Below are positions 1-58,706 of a DNA stretch of 64,000 nt, in pieces; positions within the stretch are counted from its first letter, which is position 1, and every line of letters begins with the position of its first letter. The notes beneath the pieces were generated by a model. That model ran no database searches. It was given only the letters and a program-made list of their open reading frames with translations, and had not been told where the DNA came from. The stretch is from a virus. The position numbers were made by a program, and so were the translations under genes. The DNA is taken from the IMG/VR virus record IMGVR_UViG_3300010396_000037. One strand, 5' to 3'.

Positions 1-1428
1 CCATTAAAGAAAGACGTGGGCGAGAAGAACCAATCTATTGTAGGTGGTTATGTCAAAAACCCAAATCCTGGTATGTATCATTGGGTTGTAACCTTTGACG
101 CGTCATCCCTGTACCCTTCTTTGATTCGACAATTGAATATCAGTCCAGAGACACTTCAGGGTGTAATGTATTCTGTCGACAGGTCTGACTTAGATGGTAG
201 TGGTTGGGAAGAAGCGAGGGCGTTGGCTCAAGAAAACAATTGGACGATTGCTTCTAATGGCGCAGCTTTTGATGTTGAAAGAAGTGGATGTCTACCAGAA
301 TTGATGTACATCTATTATCAGAAAAAGAATGATGCGTCAAAACTTCAAATTGAAGCAGAAAAAGAGTTACAGCTGAAACCTGGTGATAAGGAATTAGAAC
401 TTCGCATTCAGAATCTGAAGTCAAAGATATTCGCAACCAAGGTGCTACTCAATTCTTGTTTCGGTGCAACATCTAATCCTTACTTCCAGTTCTCTGACGA
501 TAGAATCGCGGAAGCAATTACAACTTCAGGTCAGACGTTGATTCAGACCGCTGCAAAAAGAGTCAATGCACAATTTTGCAAGATCATGAAAAGCAATCGT
601 GATTACATTATTGCTTCTGATACAGACTCAATTATTGTGGATTGTTCTTCAATTGTTGAAGCTGCCAAATGGAATGGTTCTTTGAATCCAACTGCGTCTG
701 TTGAAGAAACAACCAAGTTCCTCAATAGATTGTGCGAAGCTAAACTGAACCCATTGCTTGATGAAATCATGGATGAGATAGTTAGCAAGACTCATGCTCG
801 TGAAAAAGCAGTGTTCATGGTGCGTGAAGCAATTTGCGACACAGTAGTTTGGGTGGCTGCTAAGAATTACATGATGCGCATTTGGAACAACAAAGGCGTC
901 ACATACAAGAATCCTAAATACAAGATCATGGGTCTTGAAGCTGTTCGTTCTACCACTCCAACTGCTTGTAGAAAAGCTTTGAAGCATTCAATTGAATTGA
1001 TACTAGATGAAAATCAACAGGGATTGTTAGATTACATAGAGGAATTCAAGAAAGTATTTTGGAACTCTGATTATTCTGAAGTCAGTAAGAACATTAGCGT
1101 GAGATTTGGTTCACCTGTTGTTACTCAACAGATCAGAGCAGCAACAGTGTATAACAATGCCATCAAAGAAAGAAATTTGGAAAATCTCTATTCTTTGATA
1201 TCACATGGTAGTAAAATACGCCTCTTGCATCTAAAGAAACCAAATCCATTGGGGTCTGATATTATTGGATTCCCAGAAGGCAAGCTTCCAAAGGAATTTG
1301 GAATTGACAAGTATATTGACAAAGAACAAATGTTTGAAAAGACATTCATGGTTCCGCTTGAAAAGATGGTTAAAGCAGGTGGAATGAGTATTAAGCAAGA
1401 AGATTCATTGTCTGCATTTTTTGTTTGA
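1..1428 (+). CDS. 43: Family B DNA polymerase (gp43), C-terminal part, truncated by the window edge
   Basis: Motifs FDASSLYPS, KVLLNSCFG, SDTDS, KIMGLEAVRSTTP. The frame is open back to base 1. Ends SLSAFFV, a clamp-binding-like peptide. Confidence 0.95.
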   Translation, partial: PLKKDVGEKNQSIVGGYVKNPNPGMYHWVVTFDASSLYPSLIRQLNISPETLQGVMYSVDRSDLDGSGWEEARALAQENNWTIASNGAAFDVERSGCLPELMYIYYQKKNDASKLQIEAEKELQLKPGDKELELRIQNLKSKIFATKVLLNSCFGATSNPYFQFSDDRIAEAITTSGQTLIQTAAKRVNAQFCKIMKSNRDYIIASDTDSIIVDCSSIVEAAKWNGSLNPTASVEETTKFLNRLCEAKLNPLLDEIMDEIVSKTHAREKAVFMVREAICDTVVWVAAKNYMMRIWNNKGVTYKNPKYKIMGLEAVRSTTPTACRKALKHSIELILDENQQGLLDYIEEFKKVFWNSDYSEVSKNISVRFGSPVVTQQIRAATVYNNAIKERNLENLYSLISHGSKIRLLHLKKPNPLGSDIIGFPEGKLPKEFGIDKYIDKEQMFEKTFMVPLEKMVKAGGMSIKQEDSLSAFFV

Positions 1429-1437
1429 GGATTAGAT

Positions 1438-2484
1438 ATGGCAAATGTTGAATTACTGAAAAGATTAAAAGCAGCATCAACTATTGATGAAACATCAATG
1501 CTGGAAGATTCAGTGGTGTTTCAGAAAAAGGATTTGGTTCAGACTCCTGTTCCAATGTTGAATGTTGCATTATCAGGCATGCTGGATGGCGGATTTGCTT
1601 CTGGCTTGACGGTATTTGCGGGTGAGAGCAAAAGGTTCAAGACTATGTATGTCTTGATTTGTGCTGCTGCTTATCTGAAGAAATATCCTGATTCTGTTCT
1701 TTTGTTTTATGATTCTGAATTTGGTACTCCACAATCATATTTCAGTTCACTTGGTATTCCTCTGGATAGAGTGATTCATACACCTATTACAACTGTTGAA
1801 CAATTGCGTTCAGATATAGCCAATCAGTTGAATGCTATCAAGAAAGGAGACAGAATTTTCATTGCAGTTGATTCTGTAGGAAATCTTGCGTCTGCAAAAG
1901 AAGTCAATGATGCCTTAGACGAGAAGTCCGTAGCAGATATGACACGCGCCAAACAATTGAAGTCTCTCTTTCGTATTATCACTCCACAGTTGACATTGAA
2001 AGATGTTCCATGTTTTGTTGTTAATCATACTTACAAAACCATGGAGCTTTATTCCAAAGATGTTGTATCTGGCGGAACAGGTGTTTATTATAGCTCTGAT
2101 AACATCTTTATTATTGGTCGACAACAAGAAAAAGAAAAAGATAAATTGTCTGGTTTTAATTTCATTATTAATGTAGAGAAGTCACGTTTTGTAAAGGAAA
2201 AGAGTAAAATACCGATTAGTGTTTCTTTTGAGCATGGTATGCAAAAGAATTCTGGATTGCTTGAATTGGCTCTTGAGTTGAATTATGTAACTTCGCCAAA
2301 ATTGGGACAATATGCTTTCGTGAATCGCAAGACTGGTGAAGTAGAAGATAAGACATTCAAAAAGACCGAAACCACTAAACCAGAATTTTCCAAACGTTTG
2401 TTGGATGATGTTGATTTTCAAGAAGCTGTTAAGGATAAGTTTCAGATTGCTAGGACAGCTCTGTTTAAGAATGATGAGGAATAA
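1438..2484 (+). CDS. uvsX: RecA-like recombinase UvsX
   Basis: AGESKRFKT P-loop, FYDSEFG, DSVGNLAS, DMTRAK, VVSGGTG; lies between gp43 and gp41. Confidence 0.95.
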   Translation: MANVELLKRLKAASTIDETSMLEDSVVFQKKDLVQTPVPMLNVALSGMLDGGFASGLTVFAGESKRFKTMYVLICAAAYLKKYPDSVLLFYDSEFGTPQSYFSSLGIPLDRVIHTPITTVEQLRSDIANQLNAIKKGDRIFIAVDSVGNLASAKEVNDALDEKSVADMTRAKQLKSLFRIITPQLTLKDVPCFVVNHTYKTMELYSKDVVSGGTGVYYSSDNIFIIGRQQEKEKDKLSGFNFIINVEKSRFVKEKSKIPISVSFEHGMQKNSGLLELALELNYVTSPKLGQYAFVNRKTGEVEDKTFKKTETTKPEFSKRLLDDVDFQEAVKDKFQIARTALFKNDEE

Positions 2485-2486
2485 GA

Positions 2487-3902
2487 ATGCCACAACCAAT
2501 CGAAGTTGAAATTTTAAACGGTTTGGTGTTTGATTCGGAGTTTGCTAAGCTTGCTTTGCCGCACTTTGAAGATGAATATTTTTCTGATGATGGTACAAGA
2601 ACAGTTTTGAGCCTTGCTCGTGATTATATTGGTAAGTACGGAAGTCAACCAACGATTGATGCTTTAGCAATTGATCTGCAATCTGTAAAAGAGTTGACAC
2701 AGGACCAGTTTGAAGGTGCTAAGAATGTTATTCAAGAATTGAAACCGAGTGAAACTGACTACAAATGGCTGGTAGATAAAGCTGAAGGATTCTGCCAAGA
2801 TCGTGCTTTGTATCTTGGTATCATGCAAGCCATTCACATTGTTGATGGTAAGGAAACCAAGCATGGTATCTCTAAAGGAGCAATTCCTGACTTACTGCAA
2901 AAGGCATTGGCTGTCAATTTTGATCGTTCCATAGGTCATGATTACTTTTCTCAAGCTGATGCTCGTTTTGCATTCTATCATAATGATGAAGAACACATAC
3001 CATTTGATCTGGAGATGCTCAACCGCATCACCAAAGGTGGTTTGTACCGCAAGACTTTAAATGTTTTCACCGCTGCACCAGGAGTTGGTAAAACTCTGAC
3101 AATGTGCCATATGGCTGCATCATATGTTGCATCTGGTTTGAAAGTTCTATACATCACAATGGAAATGTCTGAAGAAAGGATTGCTCAGAGAATTGACGCG
3201 AACTTACTTGATGTATCCTTGAATGAGATAGAAAATATTTCTAGAGCGGATTTTGATTCCAGAGTGCAAAGAGCACGTTCCAGAATGACGGGTGATATAG
3301 TCATCAAAGAATTCCCGACTGGTGGTGGAAACGTCAATCATTTCAGACATTTACTTTCTGAATTGGACCAGAAGAAGAGATTCAAACCGGATGTTATCTT
3401 CGTTGACTATATGAATATTTGTTCATCAGCCCGTTACCGTAATGGCGATGGAGCAAATAGTTATTCTGTCGTGAAAGCTATTGCTGAAGAGTTGAGAGGC
3501 ATGGCGGTTGAATTCAATGTTCCCGTTGTTACAGCAACACAGTTTAACCGTGAAGGAGCGGGTTCGTCTGATCCTGAAATGACGAATACATCAGACAGCT
3601 TCGGAACACCCATGACGGCTGACTTGCAATTGGCAATCTACTCTACTCCAGACCTGGATGAACAGGGTAAGTTGGTTATCAAGCAATTGAAGAATCGCTA
3701 CAATGATAAGACAGAATACAAGAAGTTTCTGTTAAGAGTGGATAAGAGCAAAATGCGTTTGATGGATGATGATGTGCTGGAAGGATACTCAACTTCTTTG
3801 TCTGATAAGGAAAAGAAGAACATTGAAGAAATGTCTAATGCTCGCAAACCAACACATGATGAAAAATCATTTGGTGGGTTTGATTTTGGAGAGGATGAAT
3901 AA
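2487..3902 (+). CDS. 41: Replicative DnaB-like helicase gp41
   Basis: APGVGKT Walker A, YITMEMSEERIAQRIDANL, VDYMNI, AEELRG, TATQFNR, KQLKNRY. Confidence 0.95.
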   Translation: MPQPIEVEILNGLVFDSEFAKLALPHFEDEYFSDDGTRTVLSLARDYIGKYGSQPTIDALAIDLQSVKELTQDQFEGAKNVIQELKPSETDYKWLVDKAEGFCQDRALYLGIMQAIHIVDGKETKHGISKGAIPDLLQKALAVNFDRSIGHDYFSQADARFAFYHNDEEHIPFDLEMLNRITKGGLYRKTLNVFTAAPGVGKTLTMCHMAASYVASGLKVLYITMEMSEERIAQRIDANLLDVSLNEIENISRADFDSRVQRARSRMTGDIVIKEFPTGGGNVNHFRHLLSELDQKKRFKPDVIFVDYMNICSSARYRNGDGANSYSVVKAIAEELRGMAVEFNVPVVTATQFNREGAGSSDPEMTNTSDSFGTPMTADLQLAIYSTPDLDEQGKLVIKQLKNRYNDKTEYKKFLLRVDKSKMRLMDDDVLEGYSTSLSDKEKKNIEEMSNARKPTHDEKSFGGFDFGEDE

Positions 3903-3903
3903 T

Positions 3904-5085
3904 ATGCGCGTATGTGTACTCTATTGGCCTATCAGTGGTGTGGGTGGTATCTCAACTTTCATGAAGCATATGAAAGCAGTCGCAGATGATCGTGGAGATA
4001 CATTCCATGTTCTCTGTTCGCCAAATCAGAAAGGTAAAGAAGTTGGGTTATTGCCAGAAGCAACTGAAGTGGCTGGTGGTTCATCTAACATCTTGATTGA
4101 TGGATATGTGCCGCATCATCCATCTAACTTCGAGAAGTCCGCTGATTTCATCGCCAAGAATTATGACGTGGTTCTAACAGCCCATTTATGTCCAAGACCT
4201 AACAAGTCTTATGGTGAAGAACCCGTTTTCTTAAATCTTCTGAATGAATTGCATGCAAAAAATGTTAGAATGATTGGATTCATTCATGATGGGTATTGGG
4301 ACACTTACAAGGAGTTCGGCATTCCAACTCTTGAGTTAATGCAGAAAACAATTATTGCGCAGCCAACTTATGCCAAACCAATTCTAACAGAAAAACACTA
4401 TCCAATTGAACCAACTTATCTGGCCATTCATCCACGAATTCTAGAAGCCAATAAACTTGAAGGCGATCAAAGAAATCGTAAGCGCGTTGTCTGGTTGCCA
4501 CAATGGAAGCGCATCAAAGGTACACACCTGATGCTACAAGGACTTCCTGAGGCAGAACAGATAGGATATGATGTACATCTTTATGGATGCGGCATTGATT
4601 ATTACAACGCATGTTTGGAAGATAGCTGGAAGAAGATGATTGGTAAAGATCTATTCCGTCCAGATTGTTCTGGCCAAGGAACAGCAACTTATTTCGGTAC
4701 AAGACCATACAACGAAGTTTCTGTTGCTTTACAACAAGCAACTTTCTCACTAGATTTCCAAGGTCACAGTGCAAAATATAAGACTGCATATGAAACTGGT
4801 TCTTACAATTATACTCATCTTGAAAGTCTATATTGGGGATGCGTACCTGTTGTGCATAAAAATTTCTTGAAGAATGACATACCAGATGATTTGGTTCTTG
4901 CTCTTGACCACCCTGAAATGTGGGCAAACGCCATCAAGAAGTATTGTAGCTTTAATTACCCAACCGAAAAAGCCAGGGAGTATGTATTGGAACATCATTC
5001 TGCTACAAGGCATTATGACCAGACATTTTCAATGGAATGTAAAGAGATTAAGGAAGAAGGTGGTCTTTCGGCATTCTTTGTATGA
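3904..5085 (+). CDS. GT-B fold glycosyltransferase, putative DNA-modifying
   Basis: N-terminal beta strand plus GVGGISTF; KRIKG and YTHLESLYWGCVPVV (GT4-like nucleotide-sugar-binding segment). The start at 3904 follows GAGGA. Ends GLSAFFV. Confidence 0.75.
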   Translation: MRVCVLYWPISGVGGISTFMKHMKAVADDRGDTFHVLCSPNQKGKEVGLLPEATEVAGGSSNILIDGYVPHHPSNFEKSADFIAKNYDVVLTAHLCPRPNKSYGEEPVFLNLLNELHAKNVRMIGFIHDGYWDTYKEFGIPTLELMQKTIIAQPTYAKPILTEKHYPIEPTYLAIHPRILEANKLEGDQRNRKRVVWLPQWKRIKGTHLMLQGLPEAEQIGYDVHLYGCGIDYYNACLEDSWKKMIGKDLFRPDCSGQGTATYFGTRPYNEVSVALQQATFSLDFQGHSAKYKTAYETGSYNYTHLESLYWGCVPVVHKNFLKNDIPDDLVLALDHPEMWANAIKKYCSFNYPTEKAREYVLEHHSATRHYDQTFSMECKEIKEEGGLSAFFV

Positions 5086-5462
5086 ATCGTTGGACTTACA
5101 ATGGTTTTGACTATGATGAATCTAAAGGAGCATTCGGATTCATCTATTTGATTACAAATCTTGAAACAGGCAAAATGTACGTCGGTAAGAAAAGTTTCAA
5201 GAGATGGGATGGAGAAGAGAGCGATTGGAGAACATATCATGGCTCATGTAAGAGTCTGAATGAAGACCTGCGTGAAAAGAACTCTTTGAAGAGAGAGATT
5301 CTCTACATTTGTGAAACTGAAGAAGAAATGGATAAACTGGAAATTGAAGAGCAATTAAAGCGTGATGTTGTGAATGATCCTAGATATTACAATCGCAGAG
5401 TTGGGGATAGATTTCTAGGCATGAAACGTGTGAATGGTAGGCTACAGAAGAAAACAGCATGA
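5082..5462 (+). CDS. Small GIY-YIG (Seg-like) nuclease, catalytic domain only
   Basis: FGFIYLITN..GKMYVGKK, YHGS, REIL, E..Q, YYN. Confidence 0.75.
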   Translation: MNRWTYNGFDYDESKGAFGFIYLITNLETGKMYVGKKSFKRWDGEESDWRTYHGSCKSLNEDLREKNSLKREILYICETEEEMDKLEIEEQLKRDVVNDPRYYNRRVGDRFLGMKRVNGRLQKKTA

Positions 5463-5524: not shown

Positions 5525-5563
5525 AGAAAGTATAAATATCTTCAATTGAATAGAGGATATTTT

Positions 5564-6322
5564 ATGAAGGAGTGGATATATAAAGGCGAAGAATTAGCAC
5601 AAGTTCCTGGCAATGCATTTGGATTTATCTATTGCATAACTAATGTTAATTCTGGGCAGAAATATATAGGCCGAAAACAATTTGTCACCCAAAAAGGAGT
5701 AGAAACAAATTGGAAAACTTATTTTGGGTCTAGTATGCATTTGTCTAAAGATGTAGAAAAATTAGGCAAAAAATGTTTTCTTAGGGAAATTATTAGCGTT
5801 CACTCATCTAATTCAGAATTGTGTGAAGCGGAAGTGACGGAACAAGAGAATAGAAATGTTCTGTATGAAATTTTACCCAATGGCGAAAGAGCATATTACA
5901 ACAGATGTATAAAAGGCAAAGAATTTTATATCAATATGTTGGAGAAATGGCAAGACCCAGAGTACAGGAAGCATCAAGAAGAAATGCATAAAGAAACATG
6001 GAAAAATCCAGACTATAGGAAGAGGATGTCTGATGCTCATAAAGGACAAGTCCAATGGAATTTAGGATTAAAAGGAACGCAACCTGTTACAGAAGAATTA
6101 AGAGCAAAGAGAAGAAAGTTATCCAGACAACTGTGGAATGATCCAGTTTATAGAGAAAATTGTTTGAATGCCTGTAAATCAGAGGATCGAAGAAAGAAGT
6201 TGTCTGATGCCCATAAGGGTAAAAAATGGATAACTAATGGCAGCAGAAGCGTTCTGTTTAGAGGAGAAAATCTCCCAGAAGGTTACAGATATGGCAGGAA
6301 ATATTCCCCAAATAGTTTGTGA
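5564..6322 (+). mobile_element. Free-standing GIY-YIG homing endonuclease with NUMOD3-like DNA-binding repeats
   Basis: FGFIYCITN..GQKYIGRK, YFGS; repeats RKRMSDAHKG and RKKLSDAHKG; KWITNG tail; AT-rich; own TATAAATA promoter at 5531 and GAGGA RBS. Confidence 0.85.
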
Positions 6323-6857
6323 AACCCATGCCGATGATGCCTTTTTGAGTATGGGGCAGCATTTAGAAGATTGGCATAAACAAAGGATTCCTACAGCTAT
6401 TGTTACAGTTTTCAGTGGTACTAGAAAGAGAGCTGTAGATGCACAGAAATACGCAGATGCTGTAGGAGCAAAATGGGAAGGTTGGGGGTTTGTAGAAGGG
6501 GAACCATTACCCAATGATCTTTCTATGTATTTGCAAAATTCAAAAATATCTTTATTTCCTTTCTCGGAAAGTGTTGAATGGTATATAAATCTTGCTCTAA
6601 CACACCCGGAACATAAGAGGGTAAGAGAGTTGCTGGAACCTGCGGCAGCTGGAATGTATGTTGATCAGCCTTATGCTATCACACAAAAGAATGCTCCTAT
6701 TGTAACAGAACTCATGAAAGGAAGAACAGTTCTGAGTTACAAACATCCTGGGAAGCGTAAGTATCGCCACATTCCTCTGTTCAAAGACCAATCAAAGTTC
6801 TTTTATTTCAACAATGAAGAGAAACTTCTTCAGACCTTTGAAATGATCGTCCAATAA
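6291..6857 (+). CDS. PIG-L/LmbE-family de-N-acetylase
   Basis: HADDAFLSMG (HxDD), VTVFSG, R..D...ADAVGA, THPEH (HxxH), Y.DQPYA. The ATG at 6291 lies inside the endonuclease 3' end. Confidence 0.75.
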   Translation: MAGNIPQIVCETHADDAFLSMGQHLEDWHKQRIPTAIVTVFSGTRKRAVDAQKYADAVGAKWEGWGFVEGEPLPNDLSMYLQNSKISLFPFSESVEWYINLALTHPEHKRVRELLEPAAAGMYVDQPYAITQKNAPIVTELMKGRTVLSYKHPGKRKYRHIPLFKDQSKFFYFNNEEKLLQTFEMIVQ

Positions 6858-12913: not shown

Positions 12914-13956
12914 TGCGAACAGTTTTTAATACAAACAAGAAATCCAGGAAGCCATCACTTTTCTTTGGTGATGGTTTGTCTGTTGCTAGATTCGATGAAC
13001 AGAATTTTGAAATCTTTGAAAAGTTGACCAAACGGCAGCTGGGTTATTTCTGGAAGCCAGATGAAGTAGATGTTTCTAAGGATATCAAGGACTTCCGTGC
13101 GTTGAATGAAGCTGAACAACATATTTTCACTTCAAACATCAAACGTCAGGTGATGCTGGATTCTATCCAAGGTCGAAGTCCTGCATTGGTCTTGTTACCT
13201 ATCTGTTCATCTACAGAACTCGAGAATTGGATTCTAACTTGGTCTTTCATGGAGACCATTCATTCTCGTTCTTATTCCTACATCATACAGAATGTATATT
13301 CTGATCCTAGTATTGTACTAGATGATGTGAGTTCTAATCAATATATCAAAGAATGTGCGAATGAAATCAGTTATTACTATGACAGATTGGTAGCAGTGCC
13401 AGCCAAAGAAGAGTTGATTATGCTGCTATATGCAATTGCGGCATTAGAAGGCGTGCGATTCTATGTTTCTTTTGCTTGTTCTTGGGCATTTACAGAACAA
13501 AAAAAATCAATGGAAGGGAATGCTAAACTGATCAAGCTGATTGCTCGCGATGAGAATTTGCATCTTGGAGCAGTACAACATATGATTAAGATACTTCAGA
13601 CCGATCCTTCTTACAAGAAAGCATTTGAAGAAACTCGCCAAGTGGGTATTGATATCTTTGAATCTGTCGCGAAACAAGAAAAAGATTGGACGGATTATTT
13701 GTTCAGGCATGGCGCCATGATAGGTCTGAATACAGACATGTTGAAGAGTTATGTAGATTGGTTGGTGTCCAAGCGTCTATTATCCTTGGGTCTGCCTTCC
13801 TCTTATGTAGGAACCAATCCTCTACCTTGGACCAACAAATGGATCAGTGGTAAGGAAGTCCAGTCCGCTCCCCAGGAGACCACACTGGTCAATTACATAG
13901 CAGGTGACATTAAACAAGACGTGAATGAGAAGACTTTCTCAGGATTTTCACTGTGA
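12913..13956 (+). CDS. nrdB: Ribonucleotide reductase class Ia beta subunit
   Basis: FWKPDEV, LDSIQGR, ETIHSRSY, EGVRFYVSFACS, IARDENLH, APQET. Confidence 0.95.
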   Translation: MRTVFNTNKKSRKPSLFFGDGLSVARFDEQNFEIFEKLTKRQLGYFWKPDEVDVSKDIKDFRALNEAEQHIFTSNIKRQVMLDSIQGRSPALVLLPICSSTELENWILTWSFMETIHSRSYSYIIQNVYSDPSIVLDDVSSNQYIKECANEISYYYDRLVAVPAKEELIMLLYAIAALEGVRFYVSFACSWAFTEQKKSMEGNAKLIKLIARDENLHLGAVQHMIKILQTDPSYKKAFEETRQVGIDIFESVAKQEKDWTDYLFRHGAMIGLNTDMLKSYVDWLVSKRLLSLGLPSSYVGTNPLPWTNKWISGKEVQSAPQETTLVNYIAGDIKQDVNEKTFSGFSL

Positions 13957-52148: not shown

Positions 52149-53288
52149 ATGTTAACTCTACAAACAATGAAAGAACAGTTCAAAGACGTGAAGTCTGTTA
52201 GATTCATGGAGGATACTGTGCGTGGCGTTACCATTGTCTGTTATATGGTGGATGATCCAGAGTTGTGGAAGCACCCTCTTGGTTTGGAATGCCGTGGATC
52301 AGTATTTGATACCAAGACGGGAAAGTGCCTGTGTCGTCCATTTGAGAAGTTCTTCAATTTCCATGAAATGAGGACGGATTACCAACAGGAAATAATTAAG
52401 CAGATCAATCACAATAGCAGTCAATGTGCGTTCACCAAGAAACGTGATGGCAGTATGATCACGCCTGTTATGTTACCAAATGGTGAACTGGATTTCAAGA
52501 CCAAGAAGTCTTTTGAGTCTGATGTTGCCATATTGGCTAAGGATTACATCAAGACGCTTCCTAACATCTTGGAATGGTGTAAGATTGTTTGCACATCAGG
52601 ATACACGCCAATTTTTGAATTCACGCATCCTGATAGTCAGATTGTGATTGGTTATGGAGACCAACCAACATTGACTCTGTTAGCTGTCCGTCACATCAAC
52701 TCTGGTCATTACACTCCAAATTTTTGGAATATGCCTGGTCCAATGGATGTTGATAGAAATGTGTTTGTATGTAATTTAGACCTAGAAAGAGCACAACGTC
52801 AAACAGAAGGTGAAGAAGGTTGGGTATTGGAATGGACTGATCCAGTATCTTTGAATTCTACACGCGTAAAATTTAAGACACAATGGTACATTGATCGTCA
52901 TCGTTTGCTTGATTTGCGTGAACGTGATGTTGCTGATGCAGTCATTGAAGACAAGATTGATGACTTGCGTGAAAGCATGATTGCGGCTGGTGCTGATTTG
53001 GAAACACTGTATGCAGTCCAACAGCGAGTTGTTGGTGAATTGGTATACTTGATGGATATTTCTGTGAAGCTTCTGGATGAAGCAAAGAGCAATGATGAAA
53101 GCAAGAAAGGTGTAGCTCTGTTTGCCATACAACATGGAAAAGAATTTATGCCAGTCATAATGGCTTTGCATGAAGGAAATGAATCCAAGGCTGAAAGGAA
53201 CAACAAGAAACTTTGGGAGAAGCATTTTAGGGATGGATACAAATTAAGATCTATCGTTAACAACAAATTTGGAGAACAAGATGAGTGA
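52149..53288 (+). CDS. rnlA: RNA ligase 1 (T4 RnlA-like)
   Basis: ECRG.VF, RPFEKFFN, KRDGSMI, TPIFEF, EGWV, KFKT.WY. Confidence 0.88.
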   Translation: MLTLQTMKEQFKDVKSVRFMEDTVRGVTIVCYMVDDPELWKHPLGLECRGSVFDTKTGKCLCRPFEKFFNFHEMRTDYQQEIIKQINHNSSQCAFTKKRDGSMITPVMLPNGELDFKTKKSFESDVAILAKDYIKTLPNILEWCKIVCTSGYTPIFEFTHPDSQIVIGYGDQPTLTLLAVRHINSGHYTPNFWNMPGPMDVDRNVFVCNLDLERAQRQTEGEEGWVLEWTDPVSLNSTRVKFKTQWYIDRHRLLDLRERDVADAVIEDKIDDLRESMIAAGADLETLYAVQQRVVGELVYLMDISVKLLDEAKSNDESKKGVALFAIQHGKEFMPVIMALHEGNESKAERNNKKLWEKHFRDGYKLRSIVNNKFGEQDE

Positions 53289-53574
53289 AAACAAAATAGA
53301 AGAGTTTAAGAAGAATCCATTTCAATATGGTTCCCAAGAAACCAGGGATGCAATTCTACAGCATCTTGCTGTTTTCTTTCTAGGATTCAATGATTTATGG
53401 ATGTTGTTACATGATAGGAAGTTATCTAAAGAAGAAATTGTTGATGCTGCTGATAGTATGGAAGTGTTGAGGATGACGACTAATGCACTCATAGAGGAAT
53501 GTATTGACTCAGACCTAGAATTATCCGGTCTGGTAAAACAACTTGCTATCCAGCAGAGAAACGAATTGAACTGA
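53281..53574 (+). CDS. Hypothetical protein
   Basis: ORF with GGAG RBS between rnlA and pseT. Confidence 0.5.
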   Translation: MSENKIEEFKKNPFQYGSQETRDAILQHLAVFFLGFNDLWMLLHDRKLSKEEIVDAADSMEVLRMTTNALIEECIDSDLELSGLVKQLAIQQRNELN

Positions 53575-53585
53575 AAGGAAATATC

Positions 53586-54569
53586 ATGGCCGTTGTAAAA
53601 TTGCCAGTGGAACATGTTTCCGCTGAATGGATGGGCAAAGAAGAAGAAACTTTGTTTGATGTGAACGAACACCACGTGATTTTCACGGTTGGCGTGAGTG
53701 CCAGTGGAAAGACGACCTGGTCTGAACAATTTGCTAAAAGTCACCCAAATTGGGTTGTCATTAGTCGTGATTATGCTCGCGCGGACCTTTTATCTCCTGG
53801 TAAGTTTAGTTGGACAGCATGGAAGAAGCGTGGTTCTCGTGGTGAGAAGGAAGTCAATTTTTTAGTTGAGTCGGCCATAGATATGGCTATCCGTCGTGGG
53901 ATAGACGTGATCATTGCTGACACCAATCTGTCTCCTAACAATTTCAATTCATTGGCTGCAAAATTTCGTGATCATGGCTATGTTGTTCATTTCAAGTTCT
54001 TTCCAATAGACTGGAAGACTGCTGTGGAACGCGACAACGCGCGTCTGAATGGCGTGGGTGTGTCCGTGATCTCTGCACAGTTCGAGAAACTGCATAAGTT
54101 GGAGCGTCAAAAATCAAAATTGCATTCACGTGGTGGATATCAAGCCATTCTGTGTGATATTGATGGAACGTTAGCGCATATGGTATCACGCGGTCCTTAT
54201 GATTACAGCGATGAAGCGATCGCTACGGATGCCATTGATGAAGATGTTCGTGAAATTCTAGCGAGCATGGCCCACCGTGGTTTCAAGATCATTATCGTTA
54301 GTGGGCGTGATGGAGTATGTAGGGAAGCTACTCATAAGTGGCTGACCAAGTATTTGACTGAACAAATTGGAATTCAATTCAGTCATTACCAACGCGCGGA
54401 AGGCGACAAGCGTCCTGATGACCAGATCAAAGAAGAACTGCTTCATAAGATCATTGAAGATGGTTTTGACCCGATAATGGTGTTTGATGACCGTCCGAGA
54501 GTCTGCCGTATGTGGCGTCGTCTGGGATTGAAAGTGTTTCAGGTCGGCAATCCATACATCGAGTTCTAA
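53586..54569 (+). CDS. pseT: Polynucleotide 5'-kinase/3'-phosphatase
   Basis: GVSASGKTT, SRD..R, DTNL; CDIDGTLA, VSGR, FDDRP.V. Confidence 0.92.
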   Translation: MAVVKLPVEHVSAEWMGKEEETLFDVNEHHVIFTVGVSASGKTTWSEQFAKSHPNWVVISRDYARADLLSPGKFSWTAWKKRGSRGEKEVNFLVESAIDMAIRRGIDVIIADTNLSPNNFNSLAAKFRDHGYVVHFKFFPIDWKTAVERDNARLNGVGVSVISAQFEKLHKLERQKSKLHSRGGYQAILCDIDGTLAHMVSRGPYDYSDEAIATDAIDEDVREILASMAHRGFKIIIVSGRDGVCREATHKWLTKYLTEQIGIQFSHYQRAEGDKRPDDQIKEELLHKIIEDGFDPIMVFDDRPRVCRMWRRLGLKVFQVGNPYIEF

Positions 54570-55395: not shown

Positions 55396-56112
55396 ATGTT
55401 CAAAACGATTGAAGAGTGCCAAGTAGAACTCATTGCACATACCAAGTCAGATAGAGTCAAACGTGATCCAGTTAATCTACAAAACTATGTGGAGTCAGAC
55501 ATGGATCATTTCCCTGCGCAAGCAGCGAGAGTCAGCTTTAACAACGATCAGACTGTATATGATGTGCAGAAGGATCAGAAACTTATTAATTATCTTGCAG
55601 CGCATGAACACTTAACTCCTTTTGAATACCAACATGCTACATTGATGATTGAATGCCCACTGTTTATTCGCAGCCAGATTCATCGCCATCGAACATTCAG
55701 CTACAATGAAATCAGTCGTCGTTACACCAGTGATGATCTTGACTTCTGGATTCCAACAGATTGGCACAAGCAGGCTATCAAAGACAAGCAAGGAAGCGAT
55801 GGTAACCTTCTAGAAGATGATCAAGATGCATTCCTGGACAGTGTTTATAAACAACAGTGCCTGACTGCTCTCGGTATCTACAACATTCTGATTGAGAATG
55901 AAGTTGCGCGTGAACAGGCACGTGCAGTTCTACCGCAGAGTCTGATGACTCGGTTCTACATGGCCGGCAATTTGAGGAATTGGGCGCACTTCTTGCAATT
56001 ACGTTTAGACTCTCACGCACAAGCTGAAATTCAAGTCATCGCGCATAAGTGCCATGTAATCTTGAACGAATTGTGGCCAACATCTTTGTCAGCTCTTATG
56101 AAGAAGAAATGA
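55396..56112 (+). CDS. thyX: Flavin-dependent thymidylate synthase
   Basis: AARVSF, H.TPFE, QIHRHRTFSYNEISRRY, REQARAVLP, LR..SHAQ.EI. Confidence 0.93.
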   Translation: MFKTIEECQVELIAHTKSDRVKRDPVNLQNYVESDMDHFPAQAARVSFNNDQTVYDVQKDQKLINYLAAHEHLTPFEYQHATLMIECPLFIRSQIHRHRTFSYNEISRRYTSDDLDFWIPTDWHKQAIKDKQGSDGNLLEDDQDAFLDSVYKQQCLTALGIYNILIENEVAREQARAVLPQSLMTRFYMAGNLRNWAHFLQLRLDSHAQAEIQVIAHKCHVILNELWPTSLSALMKKK

Positions 56113-57283: not shown

Positions 57284-57682
57284 ATGTGCTTAACTATCAA
57301 TACATTTACCCATGAAAAGACTCTTGTTGTTGATCATCGCTATCGTGTTGTTACTAAATGTTTTCCTAAAGTAATAGAAGAAGACATGACCGTCTTTAAG
57401 TGTGTGCATACAGATGGCAAAGCGGAATATCAGAAGTTCTGGTATGATCCTAACACACTCTACAAGAAAAGAAAGTTACGACCAACCAAGGAAGCCGTGT
57501 ATGGCGCAGGTTTTCACGCCTACACGTCATCGCCAGTGAGGGTTTACAAGAACCGCATGGTGATAATGGCAACTATTCCAAAAGGCTCTACTGTTTTCTT
57601 TGGAGTTGATGGGGATGTTGTAACCAATGCACTTAAAACTTTAGAATTTCCAAAGAGATATAAGGGTCATGACAGAACGTAA
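57284..57682 (+). CDS. Hypothetical protein
   Basis: MCL start, GFHAY, IPKGS motifs that recur in phage proteins. Confidence 0.5.
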   Translation: MCLTINTFTHEKTLVVDHRYRVVTKCFPKVIEEDMTVFKCVHTDGKAEYQKFWYDPNTLYKKRKLRPTKEAVYGAGFHAYTSSPVRVYKNRMVIMATIPKGSTVFFGVDGDVVTNALKTLEFPKRYKGHDRT

Positions 57683-58706
57683 ACTTGTAACCATTCGTAC
57701 AATCAGCGAATTGAAACCCATACCCAAGGCCGACACTATAGAGTGCGCCAAGGTTGATGGCTGGAAAGTGGTTGTAAAGAAAGGTGAATTTCAAGTTGGA
57801 GACAAATGTGTCTTCATTGAAATCGACAGCGTTGTGCCTGATACGTCACCTTTCAAGTTCTTGATTGATAAACAAGGTAAGACTTTCTATAATGGTAAGT
57901 TTGGCGCTCGTGTTAAGACCATTCGTTTGCGCGGACAATTGTCACAGGGTCTGGCGCTGCCAATCAATTCATTTCATTTGGTTGATTTGGGTGGTGATAT
58001 AACTGCTAACCTGGATATCTGGAAATATGATCCGCCACCACCTGCTGAATTGGCAGGTAAGGTTGCAGGCAATTGGCCATCTTGGTTGCAGAAAACAGAC
58101 CAAGAAAGGATTCAAAACATTGACCCATCTGAATTGACTGGAACTTATGCAGTTGAGGAGAAAATGGATGGTACATCTATGTCAGTGTGGATTGATGAAC
58201 ACGGAGTTCTAGGTGTTGGTACCAAGAGCATGTCTCTGAAAATAGATGACGCAGTAAATGACGGCAATACGTATGTCCGCATGGCGCATGATAGCGGCAT
58301 GTTGAAGTGGCTATCAACTCATGTTTTGCCTCAGGATGCTCCATTTGCTATTCAGGGTGAATTGTGTGGACCAGGGGTTCAAGGTAATCCTTACAAATTA
58401 GACCGAGCAGCTTTCTTTGCTTTCGACATTTTTGCACCACGCAAGGGAGGCAAATTGCCAGAAGGTGAACGTGATAATATTATTGAAGCAATGCAACTGG
58501 ATGGAGTCAGAATCGACACGGTGCCATTCATTTGTTACTGCGATCTGGACGAAATTACAGGAAACAAGATAGAGTTTCTATTGGCAGAAGCTGATGATAA
58601 AAGTCTTGTTTCTGATGTTTCGCGTGAAGGAATAGTGTTGAAGGACGTGGCTGACGGGAATAAATCTTTCAAATGTATTAGCAACAAATACCTTGAAAAT
58701 CAATAA
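57669..58706 (+). CDS. RNA ligase, DRB0094 (Rnl5) family
   Basis: RKLVTIR.I..L.PI..AD.IE, RLRGQLSQGL, KTDQERIQN, EKMDGTS, QGELCGPG.QGN, REGIV.K, FK.ISN.YL. Confidence 0.88.
   Translation: MTERKLVTIRTISELKPIPKADTIECAKVDGWKVVVKKGEFQVGDKCVFIEIDSVVPDTSPFKFLIDKQGKTFYNGKFGARVKTIRLRGQLSQGLALPINSFHLVDLGGDITANLDIWKYDPPPPAELAGKVAGNWPSWLQKTDQERIQNIDPSELTGTYAVEEKMDGTSMSVWIDEHGVLGVGTKSMSLKIDDAVNDGNTYVRMAHDSGMLKWLSTHVLPQDAPFAIQGELCGPGVQGNPYKLDRAAFFAFDIFAPRKGGKLPEGERDNIIEAMQLDGVRIDTVPFICYCDLDEITGNKIEFLLAEADDKSLVSDVSREGIVLKDVADGNKSFKCISNKYLENQ

Follow-up and report, generated by a model that had tools for sequence, protein, structure and literature searches.

Why does a phage glycosyltransferase end in the same peptide as that phage's DNA polymerase? 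The question is raised by IMG/VR record IMGVR_UViG_3300010396_000037, from a soil T4-like phage, of which a stretch of 64,000 nucleotides was analyzed (64 kb; hereafter the window, to which positions refer unless a contig is named). Within it the polymerase, gp43, and a 393-amino acid (aa) protein predicted to be a GT-B glycosyltransferase (GT) both terminate in LSAFFV. We consider it probable that this peptide is the motif with which the lineage binds its sliding clamp, gp45, and that it is carried by the polymerase, gp33, a TET/JBP dioxygenase and the GT in the service of a clamp-tethered pathway resembling that of base J. The features compared are as follows (ORF, open reading frame).

1..1428, + strand: gp43, T4-type family-B DNA polymerase, C-terminal 475 aa (Pfam PF00136, E 6.8e-20); the ORF enters from the window start
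1405..1425, + strand: polymerase C-terminal peptide SLSAFFV, putative sliding-clamp-binding motif, at the same position as SLDFLFG of T4 gp43
3904..5085, + strand: predicted GT-B glycosyltransferase, 393 aa, of a small unnamed phage family, assigned from fold and gene neighborhoods
5050..5082, + strand: flexible linker and tail of the GT, residues 383-393 (...KEEGGLSAFFV), with LSAFFV at 5065-5082

The shared C-terminal peptide

The polymerase ends IKQEDSLSAFFV (to 1428; ...EDSLSAFFV) and the GT ends IKEEGGLSAFFV (to 5085; ...EGGLSAFFV), an identity pointed out in a preliminary description of this DNA, and both C-termini read as it claimed. The likeness covers nine of the 12 terminal residues (IK.E..LSAFFV). 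At the DNA level LSAFFV is encoded by TTG TCT GCA TTT TTT GTT in the polymerase and by CTT TCG GCA TTC TTT GTA in the GT; five of the 18 bases differ and every change is synonymous, which bears out the earlier view that the match has been kept at the protein level and is not a recent DNA duplication. With the window's own amino-acid frequencies, any one C-terminus would read LSAFFV with a probability of 4e-8, which rises to 4e-6 over 106 ORFs, and the match is not due to chance.

It is extremely unlikely that the match is a functionless by-product, whether of chance or of recombination that copied the 3' end of the polymerase gene. GIY-YIG homing endonuclease genes do abut the stop codon of the GT, and such elements promote local gene conversion and could have aided the copying. 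However, apart from the low chance probability and the exclusively synonymous differences, the tail has been retained in relatives whose GTs are 94% and 64% identical, where the x positions of the motif alone have changed, and a different GT clade has independently acquired a different tail.

The match of T4 gp43 to the window reaches the extreme C-terminus (tblastn, T4 residues 386-897 of 898 against 31-1422), and SLSAFFV of the polymerase aligns position for position on SLDFLFG, the clamp-binding motif of T4 gp43. The corresponding C-termini in T4 are SLDFLFG in gp43, SLDFLYEAND in gp55 and TLDFLL in gp33, and these are interchangeable gp45-binding motifs (PMC2988020), and the loop with which the DNA ligase of T4 binds gp45 was first spotted by its likeness to the gp43 tail and then proven (PMC6212786). 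The T4 motifs, of the form (S/T)LDFL(F/Y/L), and those seen here are alike in being short hydrophobic-aromatic peptides that follow a flexible linker and that terminate both the polymerase and gp33; they are modular and can be moved from one protein to another (PMC2988020; PMC6212786). The register differs, being L-x-x-F-F in this phage and L-D-F-L-F in T4, and unlike in T4 the carriers include DNA-modification enzymes and gp55 is without the motif. In the AlphaFold2 model of the GT, residues 383-393 have a predicted local distance difference test (pLDDT) score below 50 with a short helix at 389-392, and the tail is predicted to be an appended disordered segment.

Carriers of the motif in the same genome

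The sequence before the window comes from L055 (JGI contig Ga0134128_10000055, 152 kb), which belongs to the same genome, its overlap with the window start being 101 identical bases.

L055, gene order: uvsW, gp55, gp47, gp46, TET/JBP dioxygenase, gp33, gp45, gp44, gp62, regA, polymerase
L055:6408-6977: gp55 late sigma factor, 36% identical to T4 gp55, with a Lys/Glu-rich end, KKRKEKKDEV
L055:10001-11356: TET/JBP dioxygenase, 451 aa (PF12851, precomputed annotation), ending TNLESFFA
L055: gp33 (PF16805), ending DSLKKFLK
L055:15527-16207: gp45 sliding clamp, E 1.8e-15 to the T4 and RB69 gp45 structures (1czd, 1b8h)

The clamp loader genes gp44 and gp62 were recognized by blastp. The TET/JBP gene lies ~12 kb upstream of the window, and a copy that is 86% identical (L029) matches PF12851 with an E of 1.3e-21. 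When all 403 six-frame ORFs of at least 50 aa in 85 kb (the window plus contiguous L055) were scanned for L..F[FL].?$, matches were found in the polymerase, the GT, gp33 and TET/JBP, as well as in two shadow ORFs inside other genes, leaving only four real genes with the motif. In this lineage it reads [S/N/G]-L-x-x-F-[F/L]-x, follows a flexible linker and closes the protein. The preliminary description had expected the motif in both gp33 and gp55; gp33 has it, whereas gp55 has no hydrophobic clamp-binding motif at its end, and clamp coupling of late transcription may depend on gp33 alone in this phage.

The end of gp55 is also an argument for a different partner. The tail could be a docking or targeting peptide for something other than gp45, such as a replisome protein, or a degron that times turnover, or a localization signal, in which case its carriers would simply be co-regulated. 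Hydrophobic C-termini can serve as degrons, and it is by comparison that clamp binding is assigned to the tail. Nevertheless, we regard such a partner as quite unlikely: the polymerase tail occupies a position homologous to that of the T4/RB69 gp43 motif, for which a structure in complex with gp45 is solved, gp33, the obligate clamp ligand of T4, also has the motif, and the tails are restricted to clamp-encoding phages.

Two additional C-termini were considered as tails and rejected. ThyX ends TSLSALMKKK and was a candidate fifth clamp ligand, but ThyX proteins in general, among them one from a record with a bacterial name, keep LWP.SL.ALM, and therefore SLSALM is the end of the fold and not an appended tail. 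The PIG-L-like protein encoded downstream of the GT ends LLQTFEMIVQ, a stretch that belongs to the fold itself and in which every homologue aligns the same Glu.

Glycosyltransferase tails across phages

If the tail of the GT binds the same clamp as the polymerase, the two may be expected to change together, a check that the preliminary description had proposed. In the close relatives L001 and L002 the tails are matched and changes are confined to the x positions. The GT of L002 is 94% identical and ends GLSAFFV, next to a polymerase ending SLASFFV; that of L001 is 64% identical and ends SLTSFFA, with SLTAFFV on the polymerase and NLENFFA on the TET. A second GT clade (~33% identity; clade B) was found in the T4-like phages G001 (170 kb, complete), G002 and L038, where long extensions end MDMFNMFV, FDMFNMFG and VDLFGGW; the tails of the G001 and G002 polymerases are SVMDWFA and SVMDWFS. 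Co-variation was seen as matched tails in L001 and L002 and as a GT tail resembling that of the polymerase in G001 and G002.

The preliminary description had also staked its proposal on the tails of GT homologues. Past the invariant Tyr371 the protein extends for 22-44 aa and has an aromatic tail in six of six GTs from gp45/PolB contexts, but for 6-12 aa without a tail in eight of eight from PolA contexts (a PolA polymerase and no clamp gene within the stretch examined), these being counts from related phages and not independent events. In a quick maximum-likelihood tree (IQ-TREE) the two tailed clades lie far apart and GTs of PolA phages, which have no tail, surround the clade of the window, a placement from which it follows that the tail was gained at least twice. 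Two GT homologues on short contigs (L003:428-1621 and L004:1884-3089) have extensions of 31-33 aa ending KKDTLDDF and EEPTSGSIF, which may be further tail variants.

Other modification enzymes of the second T4-like group also have aromatic ends. In G001 and G002 the kinase acting on 5-hydroxymethyldeoxyuridine (5-hmdU) in DNA ends VNLFDI or VNLFEGF after a Lys-rich linker, and a second glycosyltransferase, of the GT4 type, ends SLFNDWS or TLFDNWS. The PolA-phage 5-hmdU kinases that were compared are without such aromatic tails. Neither PF12851 nor PF00303 gave a match in G001 and G002, the absence of PF12851 being weak, as its control gave no match anywhere.

L053:1423-2490, L054:1375-2448, L015:11755-13026 and L017:11786-13033: aromatic-tailed kinase or extra GT4 genes of the second T4-like group

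Tails and probable substrate of the TET/JBP dioxygenase

The TET/JBP dioxygenase belongs to a family of more than 2400 proteins with at least 556 IMG/VR loci, which were found by an alignment-based search, a search of IMG/VR with the single TET sequence having given no match. Among the best 120 homologues, 98 end in L..[FL]F.{0,2}, compared with 0.15% of internal 9-mers, and in 60 distinct IMG/VR copies the tail was strict in 47 and loose in 10. The TET tail tracks that of the polymerase in the 12 other IMG/VR genomes where both are readable, the pairs (TET/polymerase) including SSLEDLFN/SSLEDLFS, ASLEDLF/ATLEDLFG, SSLEAFF/SSLE[ND]FF and GNLESFFT/ADLTQFFT; where the polymerase ends VSLF, the TET of that genome is without the motif. 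In the complete genome G006 (161.5 kb, 263 ORFs), the strict motif is present only in the polymerase and the TET.

This TET most likely converts thymine to 5-hydroxymethyluracil (5hmU) and does not act on 5-methylcytosine, because a thymidylate synthase of the ThyX type is encoded in the window, no C5-cytosine methyltransferase motif IV was seen in window ORFs longer than 150 aa (a motif regular expression alone, over the 64 kb), and elsewhere the company that the GT family keeps is that of 5-hmdU genes.

55396..56112, + strand: ThyX flavin-dependent thymidylate synthase (Pfam PF02511, E 4.8e-47)

With ThyX the phage can make thymidine monophosphate (dTMP) and thereby the substrate base for a thymine dioxygenase. 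No ParB-family match was found among the genes called around the L055 TET. A ParB-independent clade of T-dioxygenases is reportedly often found together with GTs (PMC13229309), and many contigs encoding 5-methylpyrimidine dioxygenases (5mYOX) are without a methyltransferase, suggesting 5hmU synthesis (10.1101/2023.12.21.572611). As in the phage 5mYOX/TET systems with GTs, and in kinetoplastid base J synthesis (JBP1/2 and JGT), a TET/JBP dioxygenase and a GT occur together here; unlike in the phage systems built as one cassette, the two genes are ~15 kb apart within a T4-type replication module. In the papers on phage 5mYOX/TET enzymes and GTs, including these two, gp45 appears only as a neighboring gene and no polymerase-type tails are described. 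A peptide deformylase gene (L055:11353-11904) directly follows the TET/JBP gene in this lineage.

Identity of the 393-aa protein

The preliminary description had called the 393-aa ORF a glycosyltransferase and taken its substrate to be DNA. The ORF has no Pfam-A match at E <= 0.01, and the GenBank phage collection gave no match for the region (megablast) or for the protein (tblastn). Its family is small: a search of 5.8e9 proteins gave 12 clusters, and one of 1.84e9 proteins gave 189 representatives at E <= 1e-3. An AlphaFold2 model built from the family alignment (mean pLDDT 86.4, predicted template modeling score 0.84) has a GT-B fold, and on this model the protein is identified as a GT-B glycosyltransferase, in keeping with the original label. 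The top Foldseek matches are complexes of T4 alpha-glucosyltransferase (AGT) with DNA (1y6f_B, E 2.1e-13, template modeling (TM) score 0.69). In VIA-align, five AGT entries come first with Z of 27.1-28.1 (the best with 347 aa aligned at a root-mean-square deviation of 3.7), followed by a GT4 enzyme at 25.2. By sequence, a profile of 19 family members found no AGT chain (PF11440) among Protein Data Bank sequences at E <= 1, and there is no Pfam match to GT4 (PF00534/PF13439); by our own motif reading E307, G312 and P315, which are invariant or almost so, stand where the GT-B nucleotide-sugar motif sits.

T4 AGT is therefore the closest solved structure, also of GT-B fold, and is a phage enzyme that works post-replicatively on hydroxymethylpyrimidine in DNA, the activity that fold and context predict here. 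Unlike AGT, to which it has no detectable sequence relation, this family has a PIG-L deacetylase as its partner and occurs in 5hmU or TET/JBP contexts, not on the dCMP hydroxymethylase route. Because the fold is AGT-like and the gene context is that of thymidine hypermodification, the protein is likely a DNA (5-hydroxymethylpyrimidine) glycosyltransferase, and DNA as its substrate is supported both by the fold and by neighborhoods containing 5-hmdU or TET/JBP genes.

The deacetylase partner and its gene neighborhoods

Almost all loci of sufficient length have a PIG-L-like gene of ~185 aa just downstream of the GT.

6291..6857, + strand: PIG-L/LmbE-type de-N-acetylase, 188 aa, conserved partner of the GT, assigned from fold and catalytic residues

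In the window this gene scores 18.3 bits against the PIG-L Pfam model (PF02585), which is under the gathering cut-off of 28.2. The signature E-x-H-x-D-D (E11, H13, D15, D16) and a distal H108 are, however, invariant in 11 homologues, and the top Foldseek matches of its AlphaFold2 model (pLDDT 86.8) are all LmbE/PIG-L deacetylases of N-acetylglucosamine (E 2.5e-7, TM 0.65-0.70). In at least eight distinct PolA phages the GT/PIG-L pair is directly beside a 5-hmdU DNA kinase (HMUDK, PF18723) and a thymidylate-synthase-like gene, and where genes were called, a YfbR-type HD nucleotidase, Nmad5 and a dCMP or dCTP deaminase also occur; these loci are thymidine-hypermodification clusters. They hold tail-less homologues of the window's GT together with the PIG-L partner and follow the hydroxymethylase-kinase route, whereas the window's phage has TET/JBP and ThyX. 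In T4-like phages the pair is accompanied by HMUDK or TET/JBP. L047, a 2.1-kb metagenome contig, has a GT with a clade-B tail (KLDMFSMFG) adjoining PIG-L-like and HMUDK genes, and therefore the kinase route and a tailed GT coexist in some phages. Glycosyltransferases are not mentioned in the thymidine-hypermodification papers PMC8989533 and PMC5889632.

The same pairing could be read in terms of small molecules. A GT-B enzyme with a PIG-L deacetylase is the classic arrangement of thiol-cofactor pathways (BshA/BshB, MshA/MshB), the GT4 enzymes BshA, MshA and PimA are strong structural matches to the GT (Z 23-25), and neither Pfam nor sequence comparison tied the GT to AGT. The pair might then make a small-molecule conjugate of glucosamine, or modify a protein or glycan, with the GT either tethered to the clamp without acting on DNA bases or having nothing to do with the clamp. 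We judge this to be unlikely, since AGT ranks first by ~3 Z units over five entries, the pair is embedded in 5-hmdU hypermodification clusters in those PolA phages and stands beside HMUDK or TET/JBP in T4-like phages, and a polymerase-type tail would make little sense on a small-molecule enzyme.

A model of clamp-tethered modification

Clamp loading of the GT, as proposed in the preliminary description, is supported by the identity of its tail with a polymerase peptide that aligns with the T4 gp43 motif, the other carriers in the same genome, co-variation of the tails and their occurrence only with a clamp; clamp binding of the tail is thus supported by comparison, and we infer gp45 binding, which base accepts the sugar, which sugar it is and when the steps take place. 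The GT may act at the fork, as the preliminary description had it, or on clamps that stay behind on DNA already replicated. In the pathway that we envisage, trimers of gp45, placed on phage DNA by the gp44/62 loader, would act as a tool belt, the tail of the polymerase serving processivity and that of gp33 late transcription. A clamp-tethered dioxygenase would hydroxylate a 5-methylpyrimidine in the new duplex, most likely converting thymine to 5-hydroxymethyluracil, and the clamp-tethered GT would then transfer a sugar, probably an N-acetylhexosamine, to the hydroxymethyl group. The neighboring PIG-L-type enzyme would de-acetylate the transferred sugar, and the product would be a base-J-like hypermodification with an amino sugar, restricted to replicated phage DNA on which clamps have been loaded. 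There is a eukaryotic analogy in DNMT1, which is likewise a DNA-modifying enzyme recruited to the replication clamp, PCNA, by a short linear motif, the PCNA-interacting peptide (PIP) box, and in which this motif couples DNA modification to replication. The proteins and the chemistry are unrelated to those of this phage, and the comparison is one of analogy only.

Association of a phage DNA glucosyltransferase with the clamp is already known. T4 alpha-glucosyltransferase physically associates with gp45 (Sommer 2004), a finding that was borne out by pull-down (PMC13216743). Literature searches on phage TET or GT hypermodification together with gp45 gave only this T4 work and one paper in which "clamp" denotes ParB, and the broader generalization looks unreported. 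We lean slightly toward that generalization, in which the gp45 clamp of T4-like phages would be a general assembly line for post-replicative hypermodification, with tails of the phage's own polymerase type independently acquired by TET/JBP (in hundreds of lineages), by 5-hmdU DNA kinases and by at least two GT families.

Several points weigh against clamp tethering by the tail. The classical T4 clamp ligand gp55 is without the motif in this genome, and T4 AGT itself, which ends FKEQFDIITK, has no polymerase-like C-terminal motif. In clade B, the GT tail MDMFNMFV is like the polymerase tail SVMDWFA in type but is not identical to it, and the relatedness of the phages compared lessens the weight of the tail counts. 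Furthermore, the functional weight of tethering may be modest, because a 2026 study of T4 found that glucosylation levels do not depend chiefly on the interaction with gp45 (PMC13216743).

Neighboring genes

The GT gene is one of a run of genes on the same strand that includes replication functions and homing endonucleases.

1438..2484, + strand: UvsX recombinase (Pfam PF21134, PF00154; 49% identity to T4 UvsX)
2487..3902, + strand: gp41-type replicative helicase (Pfam PF03796; 40% identity to T4 gp41)
5082..5462, + strand: GIY-YIG SegE-like homing endonuclease (Pfam PF19835, E 2.3e-23), its start overlapping the GT stop (ATGA)
5546..6322, + strand: second GIY-YIG SegE-like homing endonuclease, with NUMOD3 (Pfam PF19835, E 8.4e-28)

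The likely start of the GT is 3904 (MRVCVLYW...), 2 bases past the stop of the helicase. Nothing but the two GIY-YIG genes separates the GT from the deacetylase gene, and the second of them is a mobile insert. In L001 and L002 a single GIY-YIG gene is present at this junction, together with a DUF4031 gene in L001, and because the insert content varies between the window, L001 and L002, the junction is a hot spot for mobile inserts.

The helicase tail HDEKSFGGFDFGEDE (3855-3899) and the tail of the ribonucleotide reductase small subunit NrdB, NEKTFSGFSL (13924-13953), have EK[ST]F[SG]GF in common, and the helicase of L001 has EKTFSGFDF, with a 7-mer identical to that of NrdB. Tails of the small subunit, R2, normally dock on the large subunit, R1. 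Through its NrdB-like peptide the helicase might couple nucleotide synthesis to the replisome; the likeness might also be chance. A protein with PF18909 (dATP/dGTP diphosphohydrolase N-terminal) is encoded at L055:19581-20165, just upstream of the polymerase, and at L002:4477-5037, and may hint at purine-pool editing as well. Elsewhere in the window (52149-54569 and 57669-58706) there is an RNA-repair set of a T4 Rnl1-type RNA ligase, a polynucleotide kinase-phosphatase and a second RNA ligase with an oligonucleotide-binding (OB) domain.

Significance

The shared tail offers a simple answer, open to testing, to how phage DNA-modifying enzymes find new phage DNA, namely by borrowing the clamp handle of the polymerase, and the same tethering would account for a high density of modification and for sparing of the host chromosome. 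Looking for C-termini that resemble the tail of a phage's polymerase gives a search rule for DNA-tracking enzymes among unannotated proteins, and the model predicts that phage TET/5mYOX and DNA glycosyltransferase tools would be stimulated in vitro by the cognate clamp and loader. Having been gained independently no fewer than twice within this one small family of GTs, the tails are also an example of modular linear-motif evolution in viruses. Finally, the pairing of the GT with a PIG-L deacetylase points to a likely new amino-sugar modification of thymine, and if the clamp does act as a general assembly line, the product in this phage would be an undescribed base-J-like thymine modification of the glucosamine type.

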